A program made the position numbers and the translations under genes. From assembly GCF_058153355.1 (NCBI RefSeq), contig NZ_CM177019.1: a stretch of 64,000 nt of DNA. The stretch is one strand, 5' to 3'. The notes under the pieces are model-generated. The model was not told the DNA's origin. It ran no database searches and saw only the letters and a program-made list of their open reading frames with translations. Shown piece by piece: positions 28,403-64,000 of the stretch (its first letter is position 1; every line of letters begins with the position of its first letter).

Positions 28403-28466
28403 AAACGAAAAGTCTGATAAAAGCTATACTTAACGGATAGCTTTCGCGACTTAGGAAAGGGACATG

Positions 28467-29399
28467 ATGCGTCGTGTAAATATTTTTTGCTCATTTGCTC
28501 TGCTTTTTGCCAGCCAAAATAGCCTGGCGGTAACTTATCCATTACCTCCAGAGGGTAGCCGTTTAGTGGGGCAGTCGCTTACTGTAACTGTTCCTGATCA
28601 CAATACTCAGCCGCTGGAGACTTTTGCCGCACAATACGGGCAAGGGTTAAGTAATATGCTGGAAGCGAATCCGGGCGCTGATGTTTTTTTGCCGAAGCCT
28701 GGCTCACAACTCACCATTCCGCAGCAACTGATTTTGCCCGCCACTGTTCGTAAAGGGATTGTGGTTAACGTCGCTGAAATGCGTCTTTATTACTATCCGC
28801 CAGACAGTAATACAGTGGAAGTCTTTCCTATTGGTATCGGCCAGGCTGGGCGAGAAACCCCGCGTAACTGGGTGACTACCGTTGAACGTAAACAAGAAGC
28901 ACCAACCTGGACGCCAACGCCGAACACCCGGCGCGAATATGCGAAACGAGGGGAGAGTTTGCCCGCATTTGTTCCTGCGGGGCCCGATAACCCCATGGGG
29001 CTGTACGCGATTTATATTGGCAGGTTGTATGCCATCCACGGTACCAATGCCAATTTTGGTATTGGGCTCCGTGTAAGTCAGGGCTGTATTCGTCTGCGTA
29101 ATGACGATATCAAATATCTGTTTGATAATGTTCCTGTAGGCACTCGTGTACAAGTTATTGATCAGCCAGTGAAATACACAACGGAACCGGATGGTTCAAA
29201 GTGGCTGGAAGTTCATGAGCCGCTGTCGCGCAATCGTGCAGAATATGAGTCTGACCGAAAAGTGCCATTGCCGGTAACCCCATCTTTGCGGGCGTTTATC
29301 AACGGGCAAGAAGTTGATGTAAATCGCGCAAATGCTGCGTTGCAACGTCGATCGGGAATGCCTGTGCAAATTAGTTCTGGTTCAAGACAGATGTTTTAA
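28467..29399 (+). CDS. ldtA: L,D-transpeptidase LdtA (ErfK)
   Basis: Signal peptide, LysM-like N-terminus and YkuD catalytic motif HGT...SQGCIRL. Confidence 0.9.
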
Positions 29400-29420
29400 G
29401 AGCGTTGATAATTAGAAAGT

Positions 29421-29449
29421 AAAAAGCCTGCTCGAAAGCAGGCTTTTTT
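29421..29449. terminator. bidirectional rho-independent terminator between ldtA and tRNA-Asn
   Basis: Hairpin AGCCTGC-TCGAA-GCAGGCT flanked by an A-run and a T-run. Confidence 0.8.
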
Positions 29450-29454
29450 GAATT

Positions 29455-29530
29455 TGGCTCCTCTGACTGGACTCGAACCAGTGACATACGGATTAACAGT
29501 CCGCCGTTCTACCGACTGAACTACAGAGGA
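29455..29530 (-). tRNA. asnV: tRNA-Asn (GUU)
   Basis: 76-nt exact match to the E. coli tRNA-Asn sequence, with anticodon loop CUGUUAA and 3' CCA encoded. Confidence 0.97.
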
Positions 29531-29856
29531 ATCGTGTGAACGGGGCGCATATTAATGGCAGTGCATGGTGATGTCAAAGGGTGAAATGCATTTTTTTGTT
29601 TGTTTGCTGCCAATTTCAACAAAGTGGTGAGCTTTCAATCTTATTGGGTAATGAACCATCGTGGTGCATACCCTCCTTTTATAGGGCAGGTGAATGCGAC
29701 TGCAGATAAAAAGAGCCAATGACGAATCTATCATAATCTCTTATTTGACAGTTGGTTAGCTTGCGCATCAACGCCAAAATAGAACTGGCAAGCATCTTGC
29801 ATTCTGGTTGTAAGTAATGGCGGCACTTGGGCCGACTCTTAAAAACCGGAGGCAAC

Positions 29857-30774
29857 ATGAACTTCAGACGCCTGAAATACTTCGTAAAAATTGTAGATAT
29901 TGGTAGCCTGACCCAGGCTGCTGAAGTATTGCATATCGCACAACCAGCGCTCAGCCAGCAGGTTGCCACACTGGAAGGTGAGTTTAATCAACAACTTTTG
30001 ATTCGCACAAAACGGGGCGTTACGCCAACTGACGCCGGAAAAATTCTCTATACCCATGCGCGGGCCATTTTACGTCAGTGTGAGCAGGCCCAACTGGCGG
30101 TGCATAACGTTGGTCAGGCATTATCGGGGCAAGTCTCGATTGGCTTTGCGCCAGGAACCGCTGCGTCATCCATCACCATGCCCTTATTACAGGCGGTTCG
30201 CGCTGAATTCCCGGAGGTCGTTATCTATCTTCATGAAAATAGCGGTGCAGTGCTTAACGAAAAACTGATAAATCACCAACTCGATATGGCGGTGATTTAT
30301 GAGCATTCCCCTGTGGCTGGTGTATCCAGTCAGGCTTTACTGAAAGAAGATCTTTTCCTGGTAGGGACTCAAGATTGTCCGGGGCAAAGCGTTGATGTTA
30401 ATGCTATTGCGCAAATGAACCTCTTTCTTCCCAGTGATTACAGTGCTGTTAGACTTCGTGTTGATGAGGCTTTTTCCCTACGGCGACTCACGGCAAAAGT
30501 CATTGGTGAAATTGAGTCTATTGCCACGCTTACCGCAGCGATTGCCAGCGGCATGGGCGTTGCAGTATTACCCGAATCGGCCGCGCGTTCGTTATGTGGC
30601 GCAGTAAACGGGTGGATGTCACGCATTACCACACCTTCCATGAGTCTCTCTTTGTCATTAAATTTACCCGCCAGAGCGAACTTATCACCACAGGCACAGG
30701 CAGTGAAAGAGTTGTTAATGTCAGTGATGAGTTCTCCAGTGATGGAAAAAAGGCAGTGGCAATTGGTGAGCTAA
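29857..30774 (+). CDS. nac: LysR-type nitrogen assimilation regulator Nac
   Basis: 305-aa LysR-family protein with N-terminal HTH; GGAGG SD; recalled Nac sequence and K-12 synteny. Confidence 0.9.
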   Translation: MNFRRLKYFVKIVDIGSLTQAAEVLHIAQPALSQQVATLEGEFNQQLLIRTKRGVTPTDAGKILYTHARAILRQCEQAQLAVHNVGQALSGQVSIGFAPGTAASSITMPLLQAVRAEFPEVVIYLHENSGAVLNEKLINHQLDMAVIYEHSPVAGVSSQALLKEDLFLVGTQDCPGQSVDVNAIAQMNLFLPSDYSAVRLRVDEAFSLRRLTAKVIGEIESIATLTAAIASGMGVAVLPESAARSLCGAVNGWMSRITTPSMSLSLSLNLPARANLSPQAQAVKELLMSVMSSPVMEKRQWQLVS

Positions 30775-31863: not shown

Positions 31864-31939
31864 TGGCTCCTCTGACTGGACTCGAACCAGTGACATACGG
31901 ATTAACAGTCCGCCGTTCTACCGACTGAACTACAGAGGA
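31864..31939 (-). tRNA. asnU: tRNA-Asn (GUU)
   Basis: 76-nt sequence identical to the other tRNA-Asn copies. Confidence 0.97.
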
Positions 31940-33687: not shown

Positions 33688-33763
33688 TCCTCTGTAGTTC
33701 AGTCGGTAGAACGGCGGACTGTTAATCCGTATGTCACTGGTTCGAGTCCAGTCAGAGGAGCCA
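33688..33763 (+). tRNA. asnW: tRNA-Asn (GUU)
   Basis: 76-nt TCCTCTGTAGTTCAGTCGGTAGAACGGCGGACTGTTAATCCGTATGTCACTGGTTCGAGTCCAGTCAGAGGAGCCA. Confidence 0.97.
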
Positions 33764-39899: not shown

Positions 39900-47888
<7,989 letters not shown>

Positions 47889-48200
47889 GCTTACCTTCCC
47901 TGAACGAGCTAACATAAATGCGCCCTTTCTAGCACAGCGAAAAAATATAAATCCTGATAGCAATATGATTGAAAATTAATAACTTTTCGTTAAGCAGTTT
48001 TGGGTGTGAGTTGCAAGAGGGGAGACTACTGAATAACTCAAGTTTTATAATCGAGGGGAAAATGGTGATGGTGTCCATAGCAAAACGCCCTCAACCATAA
48101 AGATCGAGGGCGCTTAAGATGTCAAAAACCCGCTATCCGTTAAAAAGCAATGCTCAACTAAGGTCAGTGACATTGCGCTAAAAAGCGAATTTTTAGAATT

Positions 48201-48216
48201 TGGCTCCTCTGACTGG
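48201..48216 (-). other. 16-nt remnant of the tRNA-Asn 3' end (asnT position): direct repeat marking an island junction
   Basis: TGGCTCCTCTGACTGG is identical to the 3' end of the three intact tRNA-Asn genes, then diverges; it lies 312 bp upstream of yeeJ, where asnT sits in K-12. Confidence 0.8.
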
Positions 48217-48367
48217 GATCGCCGTAGCCATTAACTGGCTGATTGGTAAGCTAAACCTAAAAGTTGGGGTTGTCAAGACCACCAGAATGACCACCTCTTT
48301 ACTTTGAAACTAACGACATATTTTACGCTCATCCCTCAGTCAATCGTAAGCTAATAAACAACACCAA

Positions 48368-50122
48368 CTACGGTGCTGGTATTATAGTCTCTGCTCCAAA
48401 CCAATTTCCAAGTGTTGTCAGTGCCGCAGGTGACAAAGCTTGGGTGAAAAGGATCGCAAGGCGCTTTTGGGGTCTGGAACAAGCGACGTAAAACAAATTT
48501 CGGTTTCGTTCAAATGAGTCTTGCTTATCGACTGGAATCGTTTGGGCTCCAGCGAATTCCAACATTTCTCCGAAGTTATACTGGTTCCACCCACGCCCAA
48601 CAACAACCAGGACATTCTCAAATTCAGCACCTTTCACACCATGTTTAGTTTCGAATGGAGAATATCCATCAAGATAACGGCGAAGTGATCTGACCTCCGA
48701 ATAGGGAATATTTTTCAGCTTTTCAAGTTCTTTTAATCTTCGGGGCATTTCAACATCAGCCGTTCTGTCAAAATGGAGTAACTCCTGCTCAAATTATTCA
48801 ACCTTATCTGGAAGTCTTGGCTTCCGTTGAGCACGGATGAACTCAATTACGTCGCCAATTGTACCAGTTTCGCGGAGAGCAAGAAGTTGCGTCATTACAT
48901 TGTGCCAACTCACCTTATCTGAATGTCTACGCAACAGTGGTGTAATACCGCCAAGCGCATTAAACATCTCTCCATACTTACGAGCGGTAAAGGCATCACA
49001 GGCGGGTTCCAGTTTGTCTACAAAAAAGGCTATATGTTCATGTTCCTTTTTCGTGAAGGATTCATTGTATTTAAACGCTGCCACTATATTTGAATAGCCC
49101 TGCTGATTGGCTAAAAGTCGATGGGTCAACATGAGAATTTTGGTGTGATTGGGAGAAAAGTCCCAACCATCCTGCTCCAACGTTGTTTTAACTCGTTCCA
49201 GAGTAGCCTGGCCTTCACATAATGGTAAATCACCACTCCAGTGCACGCCTTTTTGACGAACTCCTTGCCAATTGTTTGTATGGAAAACGCGTACTAAACC
49301 TGTAGCTTCGGGATCTTTAACACACTGCGGTAGCTCAGGTCTCATACGATTAAGGGCATCAACAATTATCTTGTCCGAACGAAAATTGGCTTCTTTACCT
49401 ATTTCAACCACGTCCTGATGTTCCAGCTTTCCACATCCACCACCATAGATTTTTTGCCAATGGTCGCCGAAAAAACCAAATAAAGGTGCTCTAGCTTGTC
49501 CAAGAAAATGCCGTTTAATTGCCTCAATCCAGTTTTTATCAGTGTCCTGGTACTCATCGACCAGAATGATTGGAAAGCGTTCTGCAATCACTCTACGGAA
49601 TTTTTCGTGCTCCATGAGTGAGACAGTTAAAGAAAGAACATCGTCATGATGAAGAGTTATACGATGGTCGCGAATAGAGCGATGTCCAAGATTATACTCA
49701 ACACTACGATTCCCAAGGCTTCCACCAACTTCTTCGAGCTTTTCTGTCCATGTTGGCATTGTCTCAATCAGTTCTCTCAACGGTTTTTGAAAGCTGCTTA
49801 TTAACGACCAACAGAACGCATGATTGGTATCACAAAAAACGATGGGGCTTCGATCTGTTCGCGCGACGATTTCATCCTTCGCCACGTTAGTAAAGGTGAT
49901 GCAGGCAATTTGCTGGCTACGTTTTTCAAATAAATCCTTATTTCGCTCAATCAAGAATCGAAGTGCCTTAATAAGGGAATACGTTTTACCCGCACCAGCG
50001 CCAGCTTCCAGCCGGAAGCTTCGTCCTTCACTGAGGCAAGCATACATAGATTCCAAAGCTCGCTGGCTAGCAGCTTCGGCGGGCGAATGGATCTCAGACA
50101 TCAGCGCTGGCTCCTTCTTCAA
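48368..50122 (-). pseudogene. UvrD/PcrA-like SF1 helicase (GajB-like), interrupted by one in-frame TAA
   Basis: Motif I AGAGAGKT and motif II ILVDEYQDTD in the 442-aa ORF; after the TAA at 48794..48796 the same frame continues into the C-terminal helicase domain (YVACSRPQKRLAIL). Confidence 0.7.
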
Positions 50123-52166
50123 TACTAGTTGTGGCTTCTACAACTTGCGCCAATACTGGATCTTGTGTCATAAGCTCATTGCTGCCAGCTAACCAGCGGA
50201 TTCCATCGACTATGTATTTGGGGGCGTTCCATTCTGTCTCTGTAATCGCGTATTTCAATGCAAATTCTGATTTTTTCCACTCAGACGCTTTATCACGGGC
50301 TTCTATTTCCAGTTCCTGAGAATTTCTCCCTACCAGCCCGAATAAAGCCGAATTTGCAAGGATAAATGCATCTTCGAATGTGCGTCCGCAGGGGCCATCT
50401 GTCACTTCTGCACATTGATAGGCAATACGATTTCCATTACGAGCTTTATCATCGTCACTCCTGGCAATCAAACCAGCTAATGTGAAAGGGGTATCTTCAG
50501 AGAACCATGCTTTCAAACAAGCATTACTGGAATATGTACCAAGATGAACAGCACATGCCTGACCTCCTGCTCTTTGGACTGCGTCCAGATCTGTTATGAT
50601 CAGACTCTGAAGCTCAAGAAACGCTAATAACTCGAAGAACAAATGAGCGTAAGCACCGCCGACTTCCATCACCGTTGCGTACTGGCTCGACAGCTTCGGT
50701 CTCTCTGGTTCGGCTGATTCTAGTTTTTTGATGATGACGGGAAGCAATAATCGCTCGCTTAACCCCTCGACGAGAATCGCTTTATCTGCGAAAAACAGAT
50801 CACAACGTGTCAACGTCATGTATTGATGAAGGAATTTTTTATCTTCAATTAGAATATGATTCAGCCCTTTACGCAGATCTTTAATTTTGGTTTTTCGGAC
50901 ACCTTCCTGAGTCCCCTGTGCTGGAGCCCCCAGAAAATAGCGAATACTCTCGAAACCAGCCGCATTGGCAATGTGAGACGAGTGTGTAGACACGACAAAT
51001 TGTACAGGCCAGGGTCTCCTGTCCTCAGTGCCATCCACCAGTTGTTGTGCAATTTTGGCAAGTTGACGAATAAAAACCTCCTGCATTTGTGGATGCAGAT
51101 GGGCTTCTGGTTCTTCAATGAATATCAGGTGTACACCCGGCTCAGTAACTTCAGCACAAAATGCTTTATAGAAACCAGCTAATTGCAAGAGAATAAATAT
51201 CAGATTACGTGTACCAAGACCGTTATATGACTCCGGTAATGCGATTCCGCTATAACCTGAATAGCGAACTTTCGTGAAGTTTGATAGCAACTTGCTAACA
51301 TCGAGCAATGTTTCAGTATGTAACTCCTGTCCTCCCAATCCTGGGTATCCAAAAGTTTCTAGAGCCGGAATCAGACTGTTGAGCTGGTTTCCGAAGTTTG
51401 TGTCAATTTGAGTCTGAATGTCCTGAACTGCACCTTTCAATGCATCAGCAATTTGTTTATCAGCAGCTCCCGCAGATGCCGAAGAGGCTGTTGCGAAAAG
51501 ATTTTCAACCGTTTTAGCCAGTACATCGGATTCTCGGGACGTCACATCATCAAGTCCTCGCTGAGCGTTGATAAAGCCCGATTTGACCAGACCGCGCAAT
51601 GCACTAGGTGGTAACTCGCGACGATTATCAGGATCGTTGGGATCTTCAGCCCATATTTTCACACAGAAATTATTAGGGATACGTTCTCGCAATATACGGA
51701 GGAAAGCGAGGCGGTCTTCTCTAGAAAGTGGCATTTCAGTCTGACTTTCGAGAAATTGTGTCAGATGGCCATCTTTCAATTCGTATCGGACTACTACCTG
51801 CGCTTCAGAACACGCGGGATCCAAATCGATAACAAAGGGACTCAATGGACCTAATTGAGGTTGTGCAGGGTCGTACTGGAATTTCAGTCGAAGTTCAATG
51901 GCGGGAATAAGTTCTCGAACGAGATGATCTTCCATGCCTTCCTTAAGTGCTTCCAGAACATCACAAAAACGGTCGTAGCAGGAACTGGAAAAGTCTTCAA
52001 GTTGGAAAGTAGCACTACCATCTGCTAAGAATCTGCGTATTATTTCTGAGAGTGATGTTTTTCCGCTGTTGTTTCGTCCAACAATGACGGTCGTCTGTTC
52101 CTCCAATACAAGCTCTGCATCAGCTAAAAGACGGAAGTTTTTAATTTCGACCTGATGAATGTGCAT
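50094..52166 (-). CDS. OLD-family ATP-dependent endonuclease (ABC-type ATPase + Toprim; GajA-like)
   Basis: Walker A GRNNSGKT, Walker B/D-loop LIFIEEPEAHLHP, Toprim motifs ILVEGLSE and ITDLD; its end overlaps the helicase start by 29 bp. Confidence 0.8.
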   Translation of the reverse strand: MHIHQVEIKNFRLLADAELVLEEQTTVIVGRNNSGKTSLSEIIRRFLADGSATFQLEDFSSSCYDRFCDVLEALKEGMEDHLVRELIPAIELRLKFQYDPAQPQLGPLSPFVIDLDPACSEAQVVVRYELKDGHLTQFLESQTEMPLSREDRLAFLRILRERIPNNFCVKIWAEDPNDPDNRRELPPSALRGLVKSGFINAQRGLDDVTSRESDVLAKTVENLFATASSASAGAADKQIADALKGAVQDIQTQIDTNFGNQLNSLIPALETFGYPGLGGQELHTETLLDVSKLLSNFTKVRYSGYSGIALPESYNGLGTRNLIFILLQLAGFYKAFCAEVTEPGVHLIFIEEPEAHLHPQMQEVFIRQLAKIAQQLVDGTEDRRPWPVQFVVSTHSSHIANAAGFESIRYFLGAPAQGTQEGVRKTKIKDLRKGLNHILIEDKKFLHQYMTLTRCDLFFADKAILVEGLSERLLLPVIIKKLESAEPERPKLSSQYATVMEVGGAYAHLFFELLAFLELQSLIITDLDAVQRAGGQACAVHLGTYSSNACLKAWFSEDTPFTLAGLIARSDDDKARNGNRIAYQCAEVTDGPCGRTFEDAFILANSALFGLVGRNSQELEIEARDKASEWKKSEFALKYAITETEWNAPKYIVDGIRWLAGSNELMTQDPVLAQVVEATTSIEEGASADV

Positions 52167-52303
52167 ATGTCCCTCATGATCTATTTATAGTCTATCGATA
52201 AATCTGATGTTATTGCTCTACCTGTAATTTTCATTCTTACGATTGTTTTGCAATGCAAAATATACCTCAGGCCATATTTATTCCTGAGGTATGTTTTGGT
52301 ATC

Positions 52304-53802
52304 TCACTCGGTCAAAGAGGCCTCACGAACATCATCCGGTTGAGGTTGGCACTCTTTCCATCGTCGAATAAGCGTTGCTACACAGGGATTACCCGCCAGT
52401 TGATTCATTCTGACCCAGTCAACATCCACTAATCCAGCCAGAAGTTCAGGATTTAGTTCCCCTTGTAATGGGTGCCACTGGCGAATACTGGGCTGGCGCT
52501 GAATTTGAGGTTGAAGGGGAGCCAAACTCCCGACGATAACGTAATTTTGTTCTGGATCATGCCAGAGTCGTGTAATGCCAGGTATGTTTTTCAACCAGTT
52601 TCGAGGATCACCTAAAGGTAAATCAAAAACACGAGAGAGTAATTTATTCCATGACGCTATTAATGACGAACTGGCTTTCTTTGCCAATTTTTTCTCACCT
52701 GCCAGGAGTGCATTTTTTCTTTCTGGCCATTTGGAAAAAATATAACTTTTTAAAATATCGTAGGTAACATTAAGTTCATTATTGTAATAATACTCACGCA
52801 AAGCACAATTCCACAACTCGCACAGCAAGTCTAGTTCACGCATGAGTGTATTTTTATTGGTATCTGATAATTCACCTTCCTCATTAAGTTGCGCTATATA
52901 AAAAGACAGTATCTTTGTATCTGGTAAGAGCCAGTGGTTTAGTGAGAACTGCTGACTTTGAGTATCAAGAACAGTCATTAATGCATCTAAATTCTCAGGG
53001 ATCATATTAGGGGTGTCGTATTTCGGATCCTGAAGAAGAATGGATATTTCTTCCATTCTATGAATAATTATTGTCAATCTCTGAGCAAATCTGGTTAATT
53101 TATCTTCACTGCTGCCAAAACCTTGCGCTATTGATTCAGGCCGATAAGTATAAGGCCATTTTTTATTTAAGAGAGTAAGAAGAGCCTCGACAGAGGTATC
53201 AAACAGTTTCAGCCTTTCATCGCAGGCTTTAACTAAATCCGGGCAAGAAGGATTAAAAGGTAAAATTACTGGGCGGTCTTGTTCAGCGGTGAATAAATAT
53301 CCTTCGGTGATAACCAATAGGTCATGAGTCAGTAAGTCTTTCTGTTCTGTCAGGCTTGTACTGATTCTTGTTTCTTTGCAAAGTAAAAGATGCTTCAACG
53401 CAAGTTCTTTGTACGCAACTTCGGTATTACGCGCCAATGCATCAAGACAGGTCTTTTTCTCAAGATCTTGAATGGCATAGTCGTAATAGCAAGAATCTAT
53501 CGCAGGGATGAGTCGGGTAGTCCCATCGGGAGTATCCTGCTCAATCAATAAATTATCAACAACAGAATCACCACTAAGATCAAACGGATTAACGTTGATA
53601 TGCTGGCACGCAATTTTAGTTCTTAGATTCTGAGTTAACGGATAGCGGTCATCAATTATACCACGGATCTGATCTAACAAAACAAGTATGCATATAGAGC
53701 TGTCTTTTTCCAATTTTTCAAATGATGAGGGTTCTGAATCCGGTAATAATTCCAGCTGTACATCAGGATACTTTTTGTTCAACACCTTTTGTATCTGCGC
53801 AC
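52304..53802 (-). pseudogene. large hypothetical protein gene, 5'-truncated at the junction with the IS66 remnant
   Basis: About 500 codons of unique sequence; the N-terminal 66 codons of the track ORF are antisense IS66 sequence, and no native start codon is retained. Confidence 0.5.
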
Positions 53803-54843
53803 TTCCCCGTGAAACCCGGGTCATCCAACCGGAAGAAGAATGCTGCCCGGCCTGTGGTGGCGGGCTCAGTCCTCTGGGATGTGATGTGTCAGAACAACTG
53901 GAGCTTATCAGCAGCGCCTTTAAGGTTATCGAAACACAACGTCCGAAACTGGCCTGTTGCCGGTGCGACCATATCGTGCAGGCTCCGGTGCCTTCAAAAC
54001 CCATTGCACGCAGTTATGCCGGAGCGGGGCTTCTGGCCCATGTTGTCGCTGGAAAATATGCAGACCATCTGCCGTTATACCGCCAGTCAGAAATATACCG
54101 TCGTCAGGGCGTGGAGCTGAGCCGTGCCACACTGGGGCGCTGGACAGGTGCTGTTGCTGAACTGCTGGAACCGCTGTATGACATCCTGCGCCAGTATGTG
54201 CTGATGCCCGGTAAAGTCCATGCCGATGATATCCCCGTTCCGGTCCAGGAGCCGGGCAGCGGTAAAACAAGGACTGCCCGGCTGTGGGTCTACGTTCGTG
54301 ATGACCGTAACGCCGGTTCGGAAATGCCTCCGGCGGTCTGGTTCGCGTACAGCCCGGACCGGAAAGGTATCCATCCACAGAATCATCTGGCCGGTTACAG
54401 CGGAGTGCTTCAGGCCGATGCTTACGGTGGTTACCGGGCGTTGTACGAATCCGGCAGAATAACGGAAGCCGCATGTATGGCTCATGCCCGGAGAAAAATC
54501 CACGATGTGCATGCAAGAGTGCCCACCGACATCACCACGGAAGCCCTGCAGCGTATCGGTGAACTGTATGCCATCGAGGCAGAGGTCCGGGGCTGTTCAG
54601 CAGAACAGCGTCTGGCGGCAAGAAAAGCCAGAGCCGCGCCACTGATGCAGTCACTGTATGACTGGATACAGCAACAGATGAAAACACTGTCGCGTCACTC
54701 GGACACGGCAAAAGCGTTCGCATACCTGCTGAAACAGTGGGATGCACTGAACGTGTACTGCAGTAATGGCTGGGTGGAAATCGACAACAACATCGCAGAG
54801 AACGCCTTACGGGGAGTGGCCGTAGGCCGGAAAAACTGGCTCT

Positions 54844-56667
54844 GTGTGTCACGAAGGAGTACTTATGGCAACAATGTGAAAATTGCAGCATAAGTTATCC
54901 ATGCTCTGAGGTGGGTGGAGGTGGGCCCTCCGGTCAGGGTTTACAGGAGCACTGACCAAACGACCCGGTGCTGCTTCATTCTAAGGAATGAGGTGGTGAG
55001 CGACTCGGGAAAAGGCAGAGATCTACTGTCACGTGGGGTTCGGGAAGCTGAACGAAAGTAAACTGTCCGATGAAGCATCGAAATCTTAGATGATGTCAAA
55101 ATGGGGCCGTACAGCCGTCCCCTGATAAGCGCAGAAGACACCTGCTTACTGACTGCGCGGCATCCGGTGTGAAGGCAGCAGGATCCCGGGCCAGACCATC
55201 TCAGGGAACGTGAGAACCTGTTTCCGGCACGTATCGGGAAACAGGGGCGGACCCATTCGTAGTAGTGATGAAAGATCTGTAATGGGTCTGGAGCGAAGGG
55301 ATGGGGATCACATTCATTGCAGAAGACACAACCCAAAAGGGGATGACGTAACTGATGCAACGAAAATCATTTGAAATACCAAAAGCACTGGTCTGGGCAT
55401 CATATCTGGATGTGCGTCGCAACAAGGGAGCCCCCGGATGCGACGGGCAGACTTTGAAAATGTTCGACCAGCAACGTGATGGCAATCTATACAAGATCTG
55501 GAACCGGCTATGTTCGGGAACATGGTTTCCGCCACCAGTGCTGGAAAAACGGATCCCGAAGTCGAATGGCAAGGAACGCATTCTGGGGATCCCAACAGTA
55601 TCCGATCGAATTGCTCAGGGAGCGATAAAACTTTTCATGGAAGAAAAGCTTGACCCGATTTTCCATGCTGATTCATATGGTTACCGACCAGGCAAATCAG
55701 CTCATGACGCTCTGAAACAATGTGCCATCCGGTGCTGGCGTTATAGCTGGATACTGGAAGTGGACATCAGTGCGTTTTTCGACCATGTGAGACATGATCT
55801 GGTGCTCAAAGCTCTGGAACACCACGGGATGCCTAAATGGGTCATCCTGTACTGTCGACGCTGGATGGAAGCGCCAATGCAGAGTTGTGAAAATGGAGAA
55901 TTAATAACCCGAACACGAGGCACTCCGCAGGGCGGGGTCATTAGTCCACTACTTGCTAACTTGTTCCTTCACTATGCATTTGATTTGTGGATGGAAAGAG
56001 AATATCGGGGGGTACCGTTTGAGAGGTACGCTGACGATATTGTAGTACATTGTTCACGAATGAGTGATGCAACAAGGCTGAAGAACAGGTTATCGGAGCG
56101 CTTCTCGGAAGTCGGGCTGGTCCTGAATGCAGGGAAAACGAATATCGCCTACATTGACACGTTTAAAAGGAGAAACGTCGCAACGAGTTTCACCTTTCTC
56201 GGATATGACTTCAAAGTGCGTACGCTGAAGAATTTCAAAGGCGAACTGTACCGAAAATGCATGCCGGGTGCGTCAAATGCAGCAATGCGCAAAATAACAG
56301 AAACAATCAAGAAGTGGCGTATACATCGCTCAACAGCTGAGAGTTTGCTGGATTTTGCGAGGCGCTACAATGCGATAGTGAGAGGCTGGATCGAGTACTA
56401 CGGAAAGTTCTGGTCCAGAAATTTCAACTATCGACTGTGGAGTGCAATGCAGTCACGTCTGCTCAAGTGGATGCAGTCTAAATACAGACTTTCGAACCGG
56501 AAGGCTCAGCGAAAGCTGACGCTGGTAAGGAAGGAGTATCCGAAGCTATTTGTTCACTGGTATTTACTACGTGCATCAAATGAGTGATCAAGAGCCGTAT
56601 GACGCGAGAGTGTCACGTACGGTTCCGTGAGCAGCCGGGGAGTGAAATTCTCTCCGGCTGACTCGAC
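54844..56667 (+). mobile_element. bacterial group II intron (1824 bp) in sense orientation within IS66 tnpC
   Basis: Starts GTGTG immediately after the exon 1 homology and ends ...AC before exon 2; domain V-like GAGCCGTATG...CACGTACGGTTC at 56592..56625; contains the RT/maturase ORF. Confidence 0.75.
55355..56587 (+). CDS. group II intron reverse transcriptase/maturase (no endonuclease domain evident)
   Basis: RT motifs including GTPQGGVISPLLANLFL and YADDIVVH, plus a maturase X domain (RGWIEYYG); 410 aa. Confidence 0.85.
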   Translation: MQRKSFEIPKALVWASYLDVRRNKGAPGCDGQTLKMFDQQRDGNLYKIWNRLCSGTWFPPPVLEKRIPKSNGKERILGIPTVSDRIAQGAIKLFMEEKLDPIFHADSYGYRPGKSAHDALKQCAIRCWRYSWILEVDISAFFDHVRHDLVLKALEHHGMPKWVILYCRRWMEAPMQSCENGELITRTRGTPQGGVISPLLANLFLHYAFDLWMEREYRGVPFERYADDIVVHCSRMSDATRLKNRLSERFSEVGLVLNAGKTNIAYIDTFKRRNVATSFTFLGYDFKVRTLKNFKGELYRKCMPGASNAAMRKITETIKKWRIHRSTAESLLDFARRYNAIVRGWIEYYGKFWSRNFNYRLWSAMQSRLLKWMQSKYRLSNRKAQRKLTLVRKEYPKLFVHWYLLRASNE

Positions 56668-56852
56668 TCGCAGGTTCCGACAGCGGTGGCGAACATGCGG
56701 CGGTGTTGTACTCGCTGATCGGCACATGCCGTCTGAACAATGTGGGGCCAGAAAAATGGCTGCGTTACGTCATTGAGCATATCCAGGACTGGCCGGCAAA
56801 CCGGGTACGCGATCTGTTGCCCTGGAAAGTTGATCTGAGCTCTCAGTAAATA

Positions 56853-58796
56853 TCAATACGGTTCTGGCGAGCCGCTTACGTTTAATCGGGAAATCTCATA
56901 TTTTCGGTTCATCATTAATGGCAGAAGGAAGCGTTGATGCTGTTGACGAGAAATTTCACCAGCACGGAGCAGTTTTTCTAGGTTGCGTAACTGGAAACCC
57001 GCATGCGCCATATCATCATTGTTCTCTGTATTGGCCTGAAAAGCGGAAAAGTAATAATGCCGTGATTCCAGCAAATATAAACAGGTCAGATCCATATTTT
57101 TGCCAGATTCAGGCAGGCTGAAATCCAGATTCACACCATTCGTCGCAGAGGCGGTCTGAGTCAGCACAATGACAATACGCCGGGAGGCAAATGCGGCCTG
57201 ATAAGCATCACTAAAGCCCTTTTTCTTCTGACATTCTGCGGTTAACAGACAAATCAGCGCAGGCTCATTATGTATGCTCACTGGGATAAACACATCAGCA
57301 AAATTTTTTAGTAGAGGATCATCAGATAAAGGTTGTTCCATTTTTAACCATGCGAGGTATTCTCTACTTTGTGTTGCTATTGTAGTGGTAAGCCATTTTC
57401 TTAAATAGGCTATGGAATTCACGAAAGCAAGATGCCCCCGGTGTTGAGGTCTTTTTCCCGCAAGATCCAATACATTAAGCAATTTTAGCAGTATATTTTT
57501 TCGATATTCTGATTCGAAATCTGATGAGGGGTCATCGCCATTCTGGAAAAAATCGGGGGCTAGCGAAGCGAGCAGATCAACACAATGCGGGTTATTCTTT
57601 ATGCTATTGAAATCTTGAATCTCAGCATTCAGTTGTGTGTTTCTGATATTTTCTTTGCTGTTATTGATCTCTTCAATAGCTAAATACTGCAACTGGAAAT
57701 CATCAGCCGTCTGGACATAAGGTATCGGTTCTTTAAACCACTCGACAGGTCGTTTTTCAAAAGTTGTTCCCAGAAAACTTTGTGTAACAGCAGGGTTGCG
57801 TGCTTCTGCAATATAACGAAGAGCTGAATTAATCCACCGGACATCGAAGTGATTACAGGCTCTTTCAATATATGACGTAGCCGACAGTGCAAAGACAAGA
57901 TTACGACTGGCGAGAGAAAGCAGCAGACCTTCTGCCGTCGTGGGCAGAAAGGCACGTTTGATCTGTATCCGTAACGGATCGATATCCGTATCTGAGACAT
58001 TCTGTTTCAGCAACCAATTGGTCAAGCCAAAAATACTGGCATGAGTATTTGGCAAAATATTACTTTTCCTTAATTCCCGTAGTTCCGGCAGGTCAGTACG
58101 CGGTAACAAAAATCGGGACATATTGGGCAGGGTTGAGCCGTAGTATGAAGGCCTGTAATCATTAACGGGGTCGAACAGAAGTCGGGTTAACTTTTTAATG
58201 TATTCATACGCTTCATCTTCACTTGCAGTCAGGTCGGTCAACATTAGGCTAAACTGTCGAATGAATTTTTCCATCAAGCGTAAAAAATCACTGATGTCGA
58301 TAGTCTGATCGCTATCCTGAAGCGGAGAGTCTGGCCTGATAATTTCGTATCCATGTTCCGCTTTCCGCATAATAAGCCGTTCACTGGTCACCAGTTGATC
58401 GGAACGGAATAAATAATGCTCACCAAAGGGTTTATTATCCAGATATTGCTGAAGAGGAATAACCAGCGATCTGGCATGTGTTAAATCAGCATGTTTTTCT
58501 GTTAATGCACTATCCAGATCATTAATAAATTTTTCTAGACGTTCACGGATCATAGGTGCAGGTTCCATTTCAACATACTGCATACGTTGTAGTAATCTGC
58601 GTCCCCCGTCGAGCAACTGACCCAGACACTCAGGTGGTTCCTGAACCCATTGCGCCTGTGCCAGATACTCTTGTAATACCTCAGACTGGTAATCAAATTC
58701 ATCGATGAAAATGATGTAATTACGCAGCTCTTTGCTGGACATTTTTACTTTGCGACGCCCATCGTAAAACGATGAAACCATCTTTTGAGTCGTCAT
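56853..58796 (-). CDS. large hypothetical protein; C-terminal 8 codons and stop supplied by the IS66 terminus
   Basis: 647-aa ORF; N-terminal IIFIDEFD resembles a Walker B / DExx motif; the last codons (SGSPEPY) are encoded within the IS66 right inverted repeat. Confidence 0.5.
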   Translation of the reverse strand: MTTQKMVSSFYDGRRKVKMSSKELRNYIIFIDEFDYQSEVLQEYLAQAQWVQEPPECLGQLLDGGRRLLQRMQYVEMEPAPMIRERLEKFINDLDSALTEKHADLTHARSLVIPLQQYLDNKPFGEHYLFRSDQLVTSERLIMRKAEHGYEIIRPDSPLQDSDQTIDISDFLRLMEKFIRQFSLMLTDLTASEDEAYEYIKKLTRLLFDPVNDYRPSYYGSTLPNMSRFLLPRTDLPELRELRKSNILPNTHASIFGLTNWLLKQNVSDTDIDPLRIQIKRAFLPTTAEGLLLSLASRNLVFALSATSYIERACNHFDVRWINSALRYIAEARNPAVTQSFLGTTFEKRPVEWFKEPIPYVQTADDFQLQYLAIEEINNSKENIRNTQLNAEIQDFNSIKNNPHCVDLLASLAPDFFQNGDDPSSDFESEYRKNILLKLLNVLDLAGKRPQHRGHLAFVNSIAYLRKWLTTTIATQSREYLAWLKMEQPLSDDPLLKNFADVFIPVSIHNEPALICLLTAECQKKKGFSDAYQAAFASRRIVIVLTQTASATNGVNLDFSLPESGKNMDLTCLYLLESRHYYFSAFQANTENNDDMAHAGFQLRNLEKLLRAGEISRQQHQRFLLPLMMNRKYEISRLNVSGSPEPY

Positions 58797-58798
58797 GA

Positions 58799-59572
58799 TC
58801 AGCAGGTGTTGCTTTTCGTCACGCCAGGCAATGGCGGGCAGAATGCGCCTGACCCAGACGTGGCGACGGAAATCTGCAACTCGTTGCCTGGCTTGGCTGC
58901 CTGCGTGAGTTCATGTTCTTCGCCATATTTTTCTTTTTGTTTCTTGGCTTCTTTTTCCAGCAATTTGATATTCTGAATCAGAGTTATCTCCACCGCTGCG
59001 CATGATTTGATTAATGACTCTTTCTCACTGGCGATGGCCGTCTGAAAACGCGTCGGATATCCTTTCAGCGATTTGTTAATATGCAGTATGTTTTTGCAAT
59101 TTCTACGCAATTTGTCGGCGATATCCTGAATGGCAAACAAATTTCTGTCTTCCAGGATATTGATGGAGTCAAATGGATCGGGAAGTGAGTCTGCGGAAAT
59201 ATTATTCTCATGAGGCAAGGGGGTGGCCTCGATGGCAGAAACGATCTGTTCATCTTGTGCATAGAGCACGCTGACGGTGAATGGTTCCCCGTTACTGTCT
59301 TTATGCGCTGCCGTTTTCTCATAAATGTCGTGCAAAATATTCCAGCGATGGGTAACCAGAATGGCTTGAGAGCCTGATTTTTTTATCGTCTCCAGCGCCG
59401 GGAGAGCGTTATCGGCATAGCCAGAGCGGTAGAGTGAGCTGGTTTTTCCGCTACCCGTAGGCCCCTGAAGCTGACAAAATCCTGCGATACGACGGGATGT
59501 TTTGGATTTTTTTGCCTGAGAAAGGGTGTATTCAATAACGGCATTGTAGGAACGTATTAAAGGGGCACTCAC
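58799..59572 (-). CDS. P-loop NTPase (helicase motif I-like GPTGSGKT)
   Basis: 257-aa ORF with Walker A GPTGSGKT; stop lies 2 nt before the ATG of the downstream 647-aa ORF. Confidence 0.5.
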   Translation of the reverse strand: MSAPLIRSYNAVIEYTLSQAKKSKTSRRIAGFCQLQGPTGSGKTSSLYRSGYADNALPALETIKKSGSQAILVTHRWNILHDIYEKTAAHKDSNGEPFTVSVLYAQDEQIVSAIEATPLPHENNISADSLPDPFDSINILEDRNLFAIQDIADKLRRNCKNILHINKSLKGYPTRFQTAIASEKESLIKSCAAVEITLIQNIKLLEKEAKKQKEKYGEEHELTQAAKPGNELQISVATSGSGAFCPPLPGVTKSNTC

Positions 59573-60075
59573 ATTTCACCTCATCCGTGTCAGGTTATCG
59601 AAGAGTAGAATTTCAGCAAATTCATGTTACACCGAACGGGTATCATTTCAATGTTTAATAATAATTTCCCCTTATAAAACAACGCTTATAATACATTCGC
59701 AGGTCAGATGATTTATCGGTGTGTTATTTGTTTGAATTTGGTGTTGTGGTTTTCTTTTTTTAACAATCTTCGATCTTCCTTCCACGACTTCCCCTTGCCG
59801 TTTTCAACCGAAAGCGGTATCTTTCACTTGCACCTGCAAAATCAGGTGCCGGGATTGGAACCCCGAAATGTAACCATACTGGCGACACGTGACGCGTCTG
59901 CGTCTTTTTTTATGTCGCGCGCTTAGCTACACCAAAATTATGGTGGGCTGGGCGGGGGCACCGTAAGGTGCGCCGGTTCCAGTATGGCCGGTAGTTCCAA
60001 CCTCGTTCAGTCCACCACCCATGAGATTGGAACCTCTGGTGGTGGTTTTCAAACCACATACTGGAGGCTGCCTTT

Positions 60076-60543
60076 ATGGCTACGATCCCCACTCAGACAC
60101 ACCCGTTACTTGCTGTTCCCTTCAATGCTGCCACAGATTTTACCGTACTGGCAGACCACTGTGAAAACTTCGCCGAAACCCTGATCGAAAGCGACGACCC
60201 GGTGCTGCGGCTGGCGCTTTGCGGGCGGCTTGCCGCCTGTCTGACTCTGCTGCAACCCACGCTGAACGAACCCATCCCGTCCCATCTGACTGACAGCCTG
60301 ACCGTTGATGCTCTACCTGCCGATATGCCCCGATTTGTCCCCGACGCTGAATTACTTTGTGACTACTCACTGACGCTGGCGCAACTTCTTATCGGGCAGG
60401 GGATGCTGCCAAAAATGGAGCAGACGATAACTGGCTTATTATGTGAACTGGTCTGGTATTTTGCCGCTGAAATGAAAGCCCCGCGTTGGCTGCGTACTGC
60501 CGGTGGCGTGAAGTTTATCGATGGTGTGGAGGCCAAAGCATGA
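60076..60543 (+). CDS. hypothetical protein (155 aa)
   Basis: GGAGG SD; stop overlaps the ATG of the Ner-like gene (ATGATG/TGA). Confidence 0.55.
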   Translation: MATIPTQTHPLLAVPFNAATDFTVLADHCENFAETLIESDDPVLRLALCGRLAACLTLLQPTLNEPIPSHLTDSLTVDALPADMPRFVPDAELLCDYSLTLAQLLIGQGMLPKMEQTITGLLCELVWYFAAEMKAPRWLRTAGGVKFIDGVEAKA

Positions 60544-60746
60544 TGCAGTCTGACTGGCATCCTGCCGACATTATCGCCGGGCTGAAAAAACGTGGCACTT
60601 CGCTGTCAGCGCTTTCGCGTCAGGCTGGGCTGGCGTCCTCCACGCTGGCTAATGCGCTTACCCGCCGCTGGCCCAAAGGTGAAAGATTGATTGCCGAAGC
60701 GTTAGATGTTGCGCCTGAGAACATCTGGCCTTCGCGCTATCGCTGA
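60540..60746 (+). CDS. Ner/Nlp-like DNA-binding regulator
   Basis: 68-aa product; WHPADIIAGL...STLANAL...WPKGE...IWPSRY matches the Ner/Nlp family from recall. Confidence 0.75.
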   Translation: MMQSDWHPADIIAGLKKRGTSLSALSRQAGLASSTLANALTRRWPKGERLIAEALDVAPENIWPSRYR

Positions 60747-61093
60747 TGTCCTTCCGGCGCAGCCACGATACGGAAGCTGCGCCGCATTTCGTTTATCTGA
60801 TTTGTCATAATCCTTTGAACCGCAAAAACAGTTTTCTATTATCGGCCTTCTTACCACGAACTAAGCTCCCGCCTGTACAAAATGCTTCATGACCTGAAAG
60901 AAGCGCCTGATGTATCAGGATGGTCGCCGTTTTACCGGCAATGCCGCCTTTGAAAACTGCCGGATCTGTCCTTCGATGGATTAAGGCTTTCTTCATACTT
61001 TATTACGCTAAGGAAATCACAATGAATCTGATGAATAATTGTGCATCGCCTGCCGTAGATGTTATATTAAAATATAATATTCGGAGGTGCTCT

Positions 61094-61351
61094 ATGTATA
61101 CAACTCGCCTGAAAAAGGTCGGCGGATCCATCATGCTGGCGGTTCCCCCCGCCGTGCTGAAAACGCTGGAGCTGTCGACGGACAGCGAAGTGGGTATGAC
61201 CATTGATAATGGCTGCCTGATTATTGAACCCCAGAAACGGCCCCGTTATTCGCTTGAGGAGCTGTTGGCGCAGTGCGATCCGCACGCAGAAATGAGCGAA
61301 GAGGATCGGGAATGGATTGATGCGCCTGCGGTGGGCAAGGAGATCCTGTAA
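61094..61351 (+). CDS. pemI: PemI-like antitoxin (AbrB/MazE fold)
   Basis: GGAGGTG SD; 85-aa product closely resembling recalled PemI (TTRLK.VGGS.ML.VPPA...SL.ELLAQCDP). Confidence 0.85.
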   Translation: MYTTRLKKVGGSIMLAVPPAVLKTLELSTDSEVGMTIDNGCLIIEPQKRPRYSLEELLAQCDPHAEMSEEDREWIDAPAVGKEIL

Positions 61352-61684
61352 ATGGACAGAGGGGAAATCTGGCTGGTTTCACTGGATCCGATTGCAGGTC
61401 ACGAGCAAAGCGGAAAACGTCCGGTGCTTATCGTATCGAAGGCATCGTTTAACAAGCTGACCCGGCTACCCGTTGTTGTTCCCGTTACCAGCGGTGGAAA
61501 CTTCGCCCGTGCAGCCGGTTTTACCGTCTCACTGGACGGTGCGGGAACAAAAACAACGGGCGTTATTCGCTGCGACCAGCCCAGAACCATTGATATGGGA
61601 GCCCGGAGCGGAAAGCGACTGGAACGTATACCCGATGCTGTCGTGAATGAAGTGCTGGCCCGACTGGAGGCCATTCTGAGCTGA
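61352..61684 (+). CDS. pemK: PemK-like mRNA interferase toxin (MazF/PemK family)
   Basis: 110-aa product starting immediately after the pemI stop; RGEIWLVSLDP...GKRPVLIVS pattern. Confidence 0.85.
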   Translation: MDRGEIWLVSLDPIAGHEQSGKRPVLIVSKASFNKLTRLPVVVPVTSGGNFARAAGFTVSLDGAGTKTTGVIRCDQPRTIDMGARSGKRLERIPDAVVNEVLARLEAILS

Positions 61685-61702
61685 TGCTTTTTATGTAAAC
61701 TG

Positions 61703-61740
61703 AATGATGGCGCTGTCATATACAGCGCCATCATTTTTTA
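61703..61740 (+). terminator. rho-independent terminator after pemK
   Basis: 14-bp stem AATGATGGCGCTGT / ACAGCGCCATCATT with 5-nt loop, followed by TTTTTTA. Confidence 0.8.
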
Positions 61741-62122
61741 TAACGACAAGTGATTAAAAAATCCTTTTGCAGGTAAAAACAGTTTTTCCTTTCTCCGCCA
61801 GCGGTACTGGCATAGTCTCCCCCTTGCCCTATGCTGTCGTTGACAGCGCCACGCTTCACAACCTGAAAGAAGCGCCTGTTATCAGGAGGTTGAGCCCTTT
61901 ACCGGTGCAGACCTTTGCAAACACCGGGTCGCAGAACATCGCGACGGAGGCCAGAGTTTTAACACGATACGTCCTTTTACTGCGCCAGCCTGCTGGTCTG
62001 AATCTGCCCCGCGCCGGAATTTTCCCGGTCAGCTTATATTTGCTGACACCCTCAGCACCTTTTACCTCACGGGCTGCGGCATGCATTTGCCGCAAGGCAT
62101 TTGCTGACGCGTGCCCGTAAAA

Positions 62123-62244
62123 CTGCACCAGACGGTAAATTTTCAGACGCTGCACCAGACCCGTGCGTCACTTTAACCGCGCAGAGCGGGAAAGTGACGC
62201 ACGCAATCCCTTTCGACCTGCACCAGAAAACTCAACTGCGCCAG
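62123..62244 (+). repeat. cluster of 4 CTGCACCAG(AC) motifs upstream of the recombinase gene
   Basis: Copies at 62123, 62150, 62218 and (CTGCGCCAG) 62236; a 12-bp-arm palindrome GTGCGTCACTTT / AAAGTGACGCAC at 62163..62202 lies between them. Confidence 0.7.
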
Positions 62245-62535
62245 CTCACGGCTGGAGTCTGACACCGCCTTTTCAGGCCATTTACCTATAAGGAGAACAT
62301 GAATCGATACCGAGGCGGATCCGGACGATCCGGGGGATAACCCGCGCAAGCGGGCGGCTGCTCAGAGAGCACAACCGAAGCCCCACCACACCTCAACGGC
62401 TGCCGCCCCGGCGCTCAGGTATCGTTCGCAGCCCCGACAAAAAAACAGGGGCTATCGGCCTGTGCGCCGGGGAAAGCTGTATCAGTGTTGGTTTTTTGGG
62501 GGATGAGTTTGCGGCAATCATGAAAAGGGGAATGT

Positions 62536-63423
62536 ATGGGGATACTGGAGCAGGAAATGACGCGACTGGCGCAGCAGGCGGGTGGCAGCTACAAAACTGT
62601 GGATGACCGCATCAGGCTGGCGCAGCGGTTTTGTGAGCGTCTGGTTCTGGCGCAGAACGTACAAATCCGCCGGGTGGAGCAGCTTAAGGCGCGGCATATT
62701 GAAGGCTATGTTCGTGAACGGCTGGCGCAGGGCATCACAAAGCGTTCCCTGCAAAATGAGATGGCGGCGGTGCGCTGCATTCTGAAACAGGCCGGGCGTG
62801 ACAGGCTGGCGCAGAGTGAGCGGCTGAATAACCGCTCGCTGGGATTGTCCGGAGCATCCCGTAACGGGACGAAGCTGGCTATTACACTGGAGCACTATCG
62901 TGATGTGCTGGAGACCGCCCGCGTAAAAGATCCGGGGCTGGCGGCAGCGCTGGAGCTCTCAAGGTTGATGGGATTACGTTCGCAGGAGGCGGTGCAGAGT
63001 GTACAGTCGCTGAAAACGTGGATACAGGCGCTGGAGCGTGGTGAGTCCCGGTTAACCGTGGTGTTCGGCACCAAAGGCGGACGGCCCCGCGAGACGATTA
63101 TTCTTGATGCTGGCGTAGTTAAAAAAGCGCTGGATAATGCGCTGGTGGTGGCTGAGGATCGTCACGGCAGGCTGATAGATAAGCCCGATCTGAGAAGCGC
63201 GATGAAATACTGGCACAGCCAGGCGTCGGGTCTTGGTTTAACTGGCGCATATTCCCCGCACTCGTTGCGCTATGCCTGGGCGCAGGATGCTATTCGTCAT
63301 TATCTGGCGCAGGGATTTTGTGAGAAGGAAGCGCTGGCGATGACGGCGATGGATTTGGGTCACGGCGACGGGCGCGGGCGGTATGTGGCGCAGGTTTACG
63401 GGCGAAAGGGGGATGCTGATTGA
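62536..63423 (+). CDS. tyrosine recombinase (phage-integrase family, 295 aa)
   Basis: Box I-like TKGGRPRETII and box II-like HSLRYAWA...LGHGDGRGRYVAQVY (catalytic Tyr); no N-terminal arm-binding domain evident. Confidence 0.75.
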   Translation: MGILEQEMTRLAQQAGGSYKTVDDRIRLAQRFCERLVLAQNVQIRRVEQLKARHIEGYVRERLAQGITKRSLQNEMAAVRCILKQAGRDRLAQSERLNNRSLGLSGASRNGTKLAITLEHYRDVLETARVKDPGLAAALELSRLMGLRSQEAVQSVQSLKTWIQALERGESRLTVVFGTKGGRPRETIILDAGVVKKALDNALVVAEDRHGRLIDKPDLRSAMKYWHSQASGLGLTGAYSPHSLRYAWAQDAIRHYLAQGFCEKEALAMTAMDLGHGDGRGRYVAQVYGRKGDAD

Positions 63424-63466
63424 TAGCTTCAGACTTGCAATATGATGTTATTCATCGTTTTCCGTA

Positions 63467-63562
63467 CAAAATTATTTGCCTCAAATAATTTTGGGTGATT
63501 TCCTATTAATCCCGGGTTATTCATCGTTATTCACCGAAAAAATTTCTACGTAGAAATTTTTT
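63467..63562. promoter_or_regulatory. two perfect palindromic operator-like sites (12-bp arms with 3-bp spacer; 13-bp arms, no spacer) with associated direct repeats
   Basis: CAAAATTATTTG-CCT-CAAATAATTTTG at 63467..63493 and AAAAAATTTCTAC/GTAGAAATTTTTT at 63537..63562; TTATTCATCGTT direct repeat at 63449 and 63518. Confidence 0.6.
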
Positions 63563-63618
63563 GTTCGATTTCCTCTCAATAAAAATGCTTCTGAACGGTA
63601 TGGCCTATTAACAGGCCT

Positions 63619-63881
63619 CTGGTGCAGTATTACGGTATTTTACTGATGATTGCGCCAGCAAAAGGAAAAGGCCAAATAATGGTAAAGGGCGACTAAGGGT
63701 AACAGCGCCAGACCGGAAAGGGCCAAAAGGCTAAAAGGCCTTAACACTGGCGCAGTTTGATGTTTATCCAATAATATCTGGCGCAGTCCTGACATAGACA
63801 GGTGACAGCGGACTGGTGCAGTAAATGGTGACATTGAACTGGTGCGGATACGATGTATTGGGAAATCAGTTTCTGGTGCAG
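63619..63881 (+). repeat. array of 6 direct CTGG(T/C)GCAG motifs downstream of the recombinase gene, inverted relative to the upstream cluster
   Basis: Copies at 63619, 63747, 63778, 63813, 63839 (CTGGTGCGG) and 63873; spacings 26-35 bp for the last five. Confidence 0.7.
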
Positions 63882-63906
63882 ATTATCTGGCAGCTATCGT
63901 CTGGAG

Positions 63907-64000
63907 ATTATTCACTGTGAATAATTTTCGTTATTTGCCTATTGATTCATAATATATTGATAGGTTTTCGTACAAAATTATTCTACGTCGAATAATTTTG
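63907..64000. promoter_or_regulatory. further palindromic sites at the window edge
   Basis: ATTATTCAC-T-GTGAATAAT at 63907..63925 and CAAAATTATTC-TACGTC-GAATAATTTTG at 63973..64000; the half-site resembles the 63467 palindrome. Confidence 0.5.

Follow-up and report, generated by a model that had tools for sequence, protein, structure and literature searches.

Two islands of the tRNA-Asn genes of Escherichia coli, the Yersinia high-pathogenicity island (HPI) and the pks island, are bounded by 17-bp direct repeats, encode P4-type integrases and make use of several identical asn genes (PMC8209727, PMC7545054). In the E. coli HPI the distal repeat is reported to be deleted (PMC8209727). A further mobile element resides at asnV of the AIEC strains NRG857c and LF82, where it has been described together with the neighbourhood of LF82_314 (bioRxiv 10.1101/606798); it carries the toxin-antitoxin pair MazEF-1 and has been named GI-19 (PMC7232551). 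The integrase-associated defence islands that PMC10121019 describes for hotspots of the E. coli chromosome are likewise small mobile elements with a variable cargo slot; the main text of that study mentions none of asn, mtfA, yeeJ or yeeO, and our searches revealed no relevant literature on a defence hotspot named for yeeJ/asn or on Gabija in association with tRNA-Asn. Here we analysed a 64-kb stretch of chromosomal DNA, hereafter the window, in which a 16-nt remnant of a tRNA-Asn gene stands in the place of asnT. Very likely, the remnant belongs to the distal attachment-site repeat of an island of ~17.3 kb, which was integrated site-specifically at asnT by its own integrase. The island is a tRNA-gene-integrated element with a P4-family integrase and belongs to the asn-tDNA class of HPI and pks. 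Elements of this kind are already known, and the same island has been published at the neighbouring asnV gene.

The remnant, TGGCTCCTCTGACTGG, occupies positions 48201–48216 of the plus strand and is the reverse complement of the final 16 nt of tRNA-Asn(GTT), which read CCAGTCAGAGGAGCCA in the orientation of the gene. The preliminary description had placed it exactly where asnT ends in K-12, 312 bp from yeeJ, with the rest of the tRNA replaced by unrelated DNA, and had proposed a comparison with K-12. Alignment of the window to the K-12 MG1655 genome confirms this description: the two sequences are collinear from the start of yeeJ across the asnT-yeeJ spacer and through the 16-mer, after which similarity ends, and K-12 possesses an empty asnT site. 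Where the remaining 60 nt of asnT, its 5' part, would be expected, the window carries foreign DNA that displays no similarity to the tRNA gene. The native chromosomal spacer (47889–48196, minus strand) adjoins a yeeJ-type inverse autotransporter gene (39900–47888, minus strand), and the distance between the 16-mer and the yeeJ ATG at 47888 is 312 nt. The corresponding spacer of K-12 is 313 nt long when the older start of yeeJ (2044938) is taken as its end, and 303 of these 313 positions are identical in the window. More broadly, the part of the window between ~25.7 and 48.2 kb corresponds to the K-12 segment from cobU to yeeJ, in reversed orientation, at 96–97% identity.

Four exact copies of the 16-mer are present in the window, three of them within intact tRNA-Asn genes and the fourth being the stump at 48201–48216. 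When up to two mismatches were permitted, 0.05 matches per window were expected by chance, and none of 100 shuffled versions of the window contained four. ARAGORN found no tRNA between 33764 and 64000, and together with the scan for the 16-mer this agrees with the earlier statement that 48217–64000 holds no further copy of tRNA-Asn. The stump is without tRNA function, and its sole plausible role would be that of a second recombination site for excision. Base composition did not mark the boundary: the island (47.6% G+C overall) does not differ from the adjacent 22 kb (47.5%), and only the Gabija segment, described below, is low on its own (43.1%).

The intact asnT and a P4-type integrase had been predicted to lie beyond position 64000. 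In order to extend the sequence, exact-protein look-ups were performed with two proteins of the island. The 295-aa product of the gene at 62536–63423 led to contigs of two NCBI assemblies (GCA_043012465.1 and GCA_015332025.1) and of two sequencing runs, and the Gabija protein GajA to contigs of the same two assemblies and of one of those runs. Contigs L007 and L013 belong to GCA_043012465.1, L008 and L014 to GCA_015332025.1. Three contigs (L007, L008 and L010) are 100% identical to window positions 56881–64000, without a single mismatch over 7.1 kb. At the other end, L013 is 100% identical to positions 44094–53893 (9.8 kb), and L012 and L014 differ from the window by one mismatch each; in all three, yeeJ, the 16-mer and the arm of the island are present. 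The drafts are interrupted at ~53.9 kb and ~56.9 kb, at the place of an IS fragment and a group II intron in the window.

Both predicted genes were found on the right-end contigs. A gene for a P4-type integrase of 420 aa (L007 7237–8499, equivalent to window positions 64117–65379, minus strand) begins 117 nt past the end of the window, and an intact asnT, identical to that of K-12, is located ~1.54 kb past it (L007 8661–8736, equivalent to 65541–65616, minus strand). The integrase ORF is free of stop codons, lies 161 nt from asnT and encodes the domains Arm-DNA-bind_3, Phage_int_M and Phage_integrase. Since both genes lie outside the window, their place in this island is deduced from contigs that match it over a 7.1-kb overlap at the right end and a 9.8-kb overlap at the left. 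Past asnT, L007 and L008 continue with mtfA, the tRNA-Ser(CGA) gene serU and then a lambdoid prophage; mtfA and serU are also the neighbours of asnT in K-12. No excisionase gene was recognised in the island, and neither a circular form nor a polymorphism for the empty site was seen in this lineage. The last 44 nt of the window had no match in a scan of one genome per species. The prophage after serU, lambdoid or Rac-like, starts ~1 kb past the intact asnT (L007 9728–16543, L008 9722–14988) and encodes an integrase, a DUF4224 protein, a YdfE-like exonuclease, DicB and a Rha/Ash protein; strain N17 displays the same prophage arrangement after serU.

Comparison of the two ends of the island revealed a perfect direct repeat, which reads CCAGTCAGAGGAGCCAAATT in tRNA orientation. 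The preliminary description had regarded the 16-mer as the direct-repeat signature of an integrase-mediated island; the repeat is indeed perfect at both ends, but its length is 20 bp rather than 16, as the 16 tRNA-Asn bases are followed by AATT. Its distal copy, an attR-type junction at 48197–48216 (minus strand), is identical to L007 8657–8676 at the intact asnT. In tRNA orientation the integrase end reads ...GGTTCGAGT CCAGTCAGAGGAGCCAAATT TCGATTCTTACGC and the yeeJ end ...GGCTACGGCGATC CCAGTCAGAGGAGCCAAATT CTAAAAATTCGC. From 48217 to the base preceding the intact asnT the island measures ~17.3 kb. The repeat is its exact left boundary, so that the window consists of accessory DNA from 48217 onwards, and the strain keeps four tRNA-Asn genes.

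The remaining three asn genes were located with ARAGORN and named by synteny with K-12: asnV (29455–29530, minus strand), asnU (31864–31939, minus strand) and asnW (33688–33763, plus strand). All three are unoccupied and possess the same 20-bp core. The four asn genes of the strain and asnT of K-12 have the same sequence, with AATT directly after each and divergence beyond it; therefore, the 20-bp core is present four times in the chromosome. We propose that the attP of the island would have undergone site-specific recombination with the 3' end of asnT, catalysed by the P4-family tyrosine integrase of the element. The element would bring its own copy of the 16 nt at the 3' end of the tRNA together with AATT, so that a crossover within the 20 bp of identity would rebuild an intact asnT at the integrase end, beside mtfA. 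The original chromosomal 20 bp would be left at the other end, still joined to the native asnT-yeeJ spacer. The island may still be competent for excision. The distal arm of the island, putatively derived from attP (48217–48367, minus strand), is conserved in its repeat-proximal part in sister islands with other cargo. It contains two GGTGGTC repeats (48277–48284 and 48288–48295), and a third is found between asnT and the start of the integrase gene; these repeats are candidate arm-type integrase sites.

Sister islands provide further insight into the use of these sites. The integrase of an island at asnU of strain N17, the cargo of which comprises AAA-ATPase, NACHT and HEPN genes, is 98.1% identical to the present one, and that of an island at asnV of EC28 is 96.0% identical. 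Islands at asnT of E7-1N7 and AHM8C212RI encode integrases that are 86–89% identical and carry VgrG/PAAR genes and T6SS fragments. The island type known from publications on asnV of AIEC strains thus occupies asnT, asnU or asnV in different strains, and near-identical integrases are able to place sister islands at any of these genes because all four asn genes share the 20-bp core. At each occupied asn locus, the flank outside the distal repeat is the native downstream sequence of that locus. For example, the end of the LF82 island is followed by AATTCAAAAAAGCCTGC..., which is the sequence downstream of asnV in the window. Such locus-specific flanks are as expected from independent site-specific insertions into different asn genes.

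In order to assess how widely the junction is distributed, we searched 5426 complete E. coli genomes with a 181-nt query that comprised the repeat together with the asnT flank on one side and the island arm on the other. The island arm was present at the junction in 262 of the 5426 genomes, when at least 80% of the query had to be covered. Most of the other matching genomes aligned with the first 77 nt only; in these, the aligned part covers a tRNA-Asn that is annotated and intact, as at the empty site of the K-12 type. The distribution is therefore sporadic, K-12 and most of the other matching genomes carrying asnT directly followed by the yeeJ spacer. The combination of a yeeJ-Gabija junction with the island at asnT was absent from the complete RefSeq E. 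coli genomes, the best matches being confined to one side of the junction, that of yeeJ or that of the island.

Three other explanations of the remnant were considered. That the 16-mer is a fortuitous match is a negligible prospect: besides the chance expectation of 0.05 per window even at up to two mismatches, its position relative to yeeJ agrees with that of K-12 within 1 nt and the match extends to 20 bp, so that chance, which the preliminary description had named as a possible objection, is excluded. It is also conceivable that asnT was lost through an insertion or deletion mediated by an IS element without site specificity, in which case the 16-mer would be a mere truncation stump and the strain would have no fourth tRNA-Asn gene. 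The window taken alone does show only the stump, and the island does contain an IS66 fragment and a group II intron. Yet these insertions are located more than 5 kb away from the junction, the identical contigs carry an intact asnT, the integrase and a perfect 20-bp repeat at the far end, and sister islands with other cargo, as well as islands at other asn genes, share this breakpoint. We consider such a loss highly improbable.

The explanation that deserves more attention, although we regard it as unlikely, is that the island was imported already integrated, on a large chromosomal fragment, by homologous recombination in the flanking core genes, the repeat being a fossil of an event in another strain. 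PMC2606025 argues that pathogenicity islands such as HPI spread by intraspecies recombination, and this route has been proposed for HPI within E. coli. The decayed cargo suggests an old resident, and the identity of the surrounding core genes to those of the compared strains is no more than 96–98%, so that a mosaic origin is possible. On the other hand, neither the integrase nor the two repeats show any damage, and the occurrence of a near-identical element at asnV and asnU, with locus-specific flanks, points to repeated site-specific insertions. Import would furthermore bear on the route of arrival only, for the junction would still need an integrase event at asnT at some time. Whether the island arrived by integration or by recombinational import, the identity of the 16-mer is unchanged.

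Among described elements, the present island is closest to GI-19 at asnV of LF82 and NRG857c. Over 80% of window positions 48190–64000 the two are 95–99% identical and share both backbone and cargo: the identity is 99.1% over 48190–53803, 98.9% over 56879–59864 and 95.5% over 59853–63401. The order of genes is the same (gajB, gajA, two large genes, the BcmA homologue, the HTH gene, MazEF-1 and the integrase-domain gene), as are the att core and the distal arm. The two islands differ in their location, at asnV and asnT, respectively, and in their insertions. The LF82 island carries ISEc1 and IS200C, both of which are missing from the present island, whereas the latter has acquired the IS66 fragment and the group II intron. 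A nonsense codon in gajB is found in the present island, but not in LF82. The spacer beside the integrase gene is only 81–86% identical to that of LF82 and is closer (88.8%) to that of the N17 asnU island.

HPI shares with the present island the target gene asnT, an integrase adjoining the intact tRNA gene and a repeat that covers the 3' end of the tRNA. Its use of asnT in other strains, which the preliminary description had mentioned, is illustrated by strain N17, in which asnT is followed by the integrase gene and the ybt genes. The HPI integrase beside asnT of N17 is equal in length to that of the present island and 71% identical to it over 415 aligned residues. HPI is larger (30–40 kb against ~17 kb), and its distal repeat, reported as deleted in E. 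coli (PMC8209727), is kept here. The repeats of HPI and pks are reported to be 17 bp long (PMC8209727), compared with 20 bp in the present island. The cargo is not HPI-like, as had been stated, and consists of Gabija, two large genes, the IS element with the intron, and MazEF instead. No yersiniabactin genes (irp, ybt, fyuA) were found in 48217–64000, the large ORFs of which are all accounted for otherwise. The pks (colibactin) island at asnW, asnU or asnV resembles the present island, as far as its published description goes, in its P4-type integrase, short direct repeats and use of several asn sites, but differs in its cargo and size (54 kb against ~17 kb).

Satellite phage P4 encodes an Int that is 51% identical to the island integrase over 98% of its length, possesses a C4/CI-type antisense RNA and integrates at a tRNA 3' end, and in these respects it is similar to the present island. 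A P4-like phage satellite was considered as the nature of the island and rejected, since there are no primase or capsid-size genes: none of the island ORFs has the size or family expected of the P4 primase-helicase (alpha) or of the capsid-size and helper genes (sid, delta, psu). The only ORFs longer than 400 aa are gajA, gajB, the IS66 transposase, the intron reverse transcriptase and the remnants of the two large genes. With the mobile defence islands of E. coli hotspots (PMC10121019) the present island has in common the combination of a small integrase-bearing element and a variable cargo slot, which is filled by Gabija here, by NACHT, HEPN and AAA genes in N17 and by VgrG/PAAR in E7-1N7. 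The finding is of practical use for annotation and leaves the current understanding of tRNA-targeted islands unchanged; the threads with some potential for novelty are a pair of large genes without assigned families and a repeat array beside the integrase gene.

The cargo begins next to the distal arm with a pseudogene of gajB (48368–50101, minus strand), encoding the UvrD-like helicase of the Gabija system; its orthologue in LF82 matches the PADLOC profile PDLC00113 (E-value 4e-267). Relative to LF82, codon 436 (48794–48796) has changed from AAA to TAA. The split gajB is common to three independent assemblies, which excludes a sequencing error in the window. The gene is followed by an intact gajA (50094–52166, minus strand; PADLOC PDLC00063, 3.4e-290), the 690-aa product of which, an OLD-family ATPase/TOPRIM nuclease, contains the Pfam domains AAA_15, AAA_21 and OLD-like_TOPRIM. 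The two genes of the system are not both intact, gajA being whole and gajB interrupted. Gabija is present and, on account of the TAA codon in gajB, probably inactive.

Next to Gabija, the cargo slot is occupied by two large genes, both broken. A 3' remnant of ~480 codons (52304–53803, minus strand) corresponds to an 818-aa gene that is intact in LF82, and a 5' remnant (56879–59572, minus strand), with a frameshift near codon 257 and a truncated 3' end, to a 1300-aa gene. The intact genes are located at 24115–26571 and 26575–30477, respectively, of the LF82 sequence (L001), and the pair is also intact in EC28. The 818-aa protein was searched against Pfam, PADLOC, NCBIfam, PHROGs and PDB sequences and the 1300-aa protein against PADLOC, NCBIfam, PHROGs and PDB sequences; neither yielded a hit. 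In the sister islands the same slot is filled by NACHT and HEPN genes or by VgrG/PAAR; by analogy, the pair may therefore be an undescribed defence or effector pair.

Compared with LF82, parts of both large genes were removed by an insertion of 3,075 bp (53804–56878, plus strand), at the place of which the LF82 island has 2,173 bp. Its components are an IS66-family transposase fragment (ORF 53688–54893, plus strand; NF033517, 1.7e-123) and a group II intron (54917–56667, plus strand; Rfam RF01999 and RF00029), with domains D1–D4 at 54917–55033 and domain V/VI at 56590–56667. The reverse transcriptase/maturase of the intron is encoded at 55355–56587 (plus strand; TIGR04416, 6e-118). The IS66 fragment lies directly before the intron, and the drafts of identical strains break on either side of the two. 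The island is a decaying defence island, the integration module of which is still intact.

The backbone of the island, beyond the second large gene, starts with two RNAs at the head of an operon, both above the Rfam gathering score: an isrK-like RNA (59830–59910, plus strand; 71 bits) and a C4-antisense-like RNA (59936–60022, plus strand; 83 bits). Just downstream of them, on the same strand, are the genes for a 155-aa homologue of LF82_314 'BcmA' (60076–60543), for a 68-aa HTH_35/SfsB-like regulator (60540–60746), and for a MazE/MazF (PemIK/ChpB-like) toxin-antitoxin pair (61094–61684) that corresponds to MazEF-1 of NRG857c. An EFASI RNA, above the Rfam gathering threshold (62299–62428, plus strand), is situated just upstream of the gene for the 295-aa integrase-domain protein (62536–63423, plus strand), which contains the Pfam domains Phage_int_SAM_2 and Integrase_1. 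A literature search for EFASI found nothing related.

Between the integrase-domain gene and the integrase gene proper lies a non-coding spacer of ~700 nt (63424–64000, continuing to ~64116; L007 6544–7236). It contains four units of ~70 nt, each centred on a palindrome, for example CAAAATTATTTG/CAAATAATTTTG or AAAAAATTTCTAC/GTAGAAATTTTTT, and this array is 81–88% conserved in the sister islands. Its distance to the att core is too great for a set of arm sites. A more speculative reading, which we consider unlikely, is that the family might be a still-active minimal integrative element, hopping among the four identical asn attB sites and swapping defence cargo in one slot. In that case the 818-/1300-aa pair would be an undescribed anti-phage system and the array beside the integrase gene possibly a cis-acting transfer or replication site.

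Two further observations concern DNA outside the island. Positions 1 to ~25700 of the window contain a CP4-44-like element that adjoins cobU and has counterparts of 99% identity in many E. coli genomes; it includes yeeS, yeeT, cbeA/cbtA, yeeW, a GTPase/dynamin/RdcB/patatin-like module and copies of IS66 and other IS elements. In LF82 and EC28, a 9-kb sugar-PTS/hxlB cluster separates ldtA from the asnV island at the distal end of the latter (LF82: L001 10686–19953), and it may be a remnant of an older element integrated at asnV. In the window (29366–29455), ldtA directly abuts asnV.
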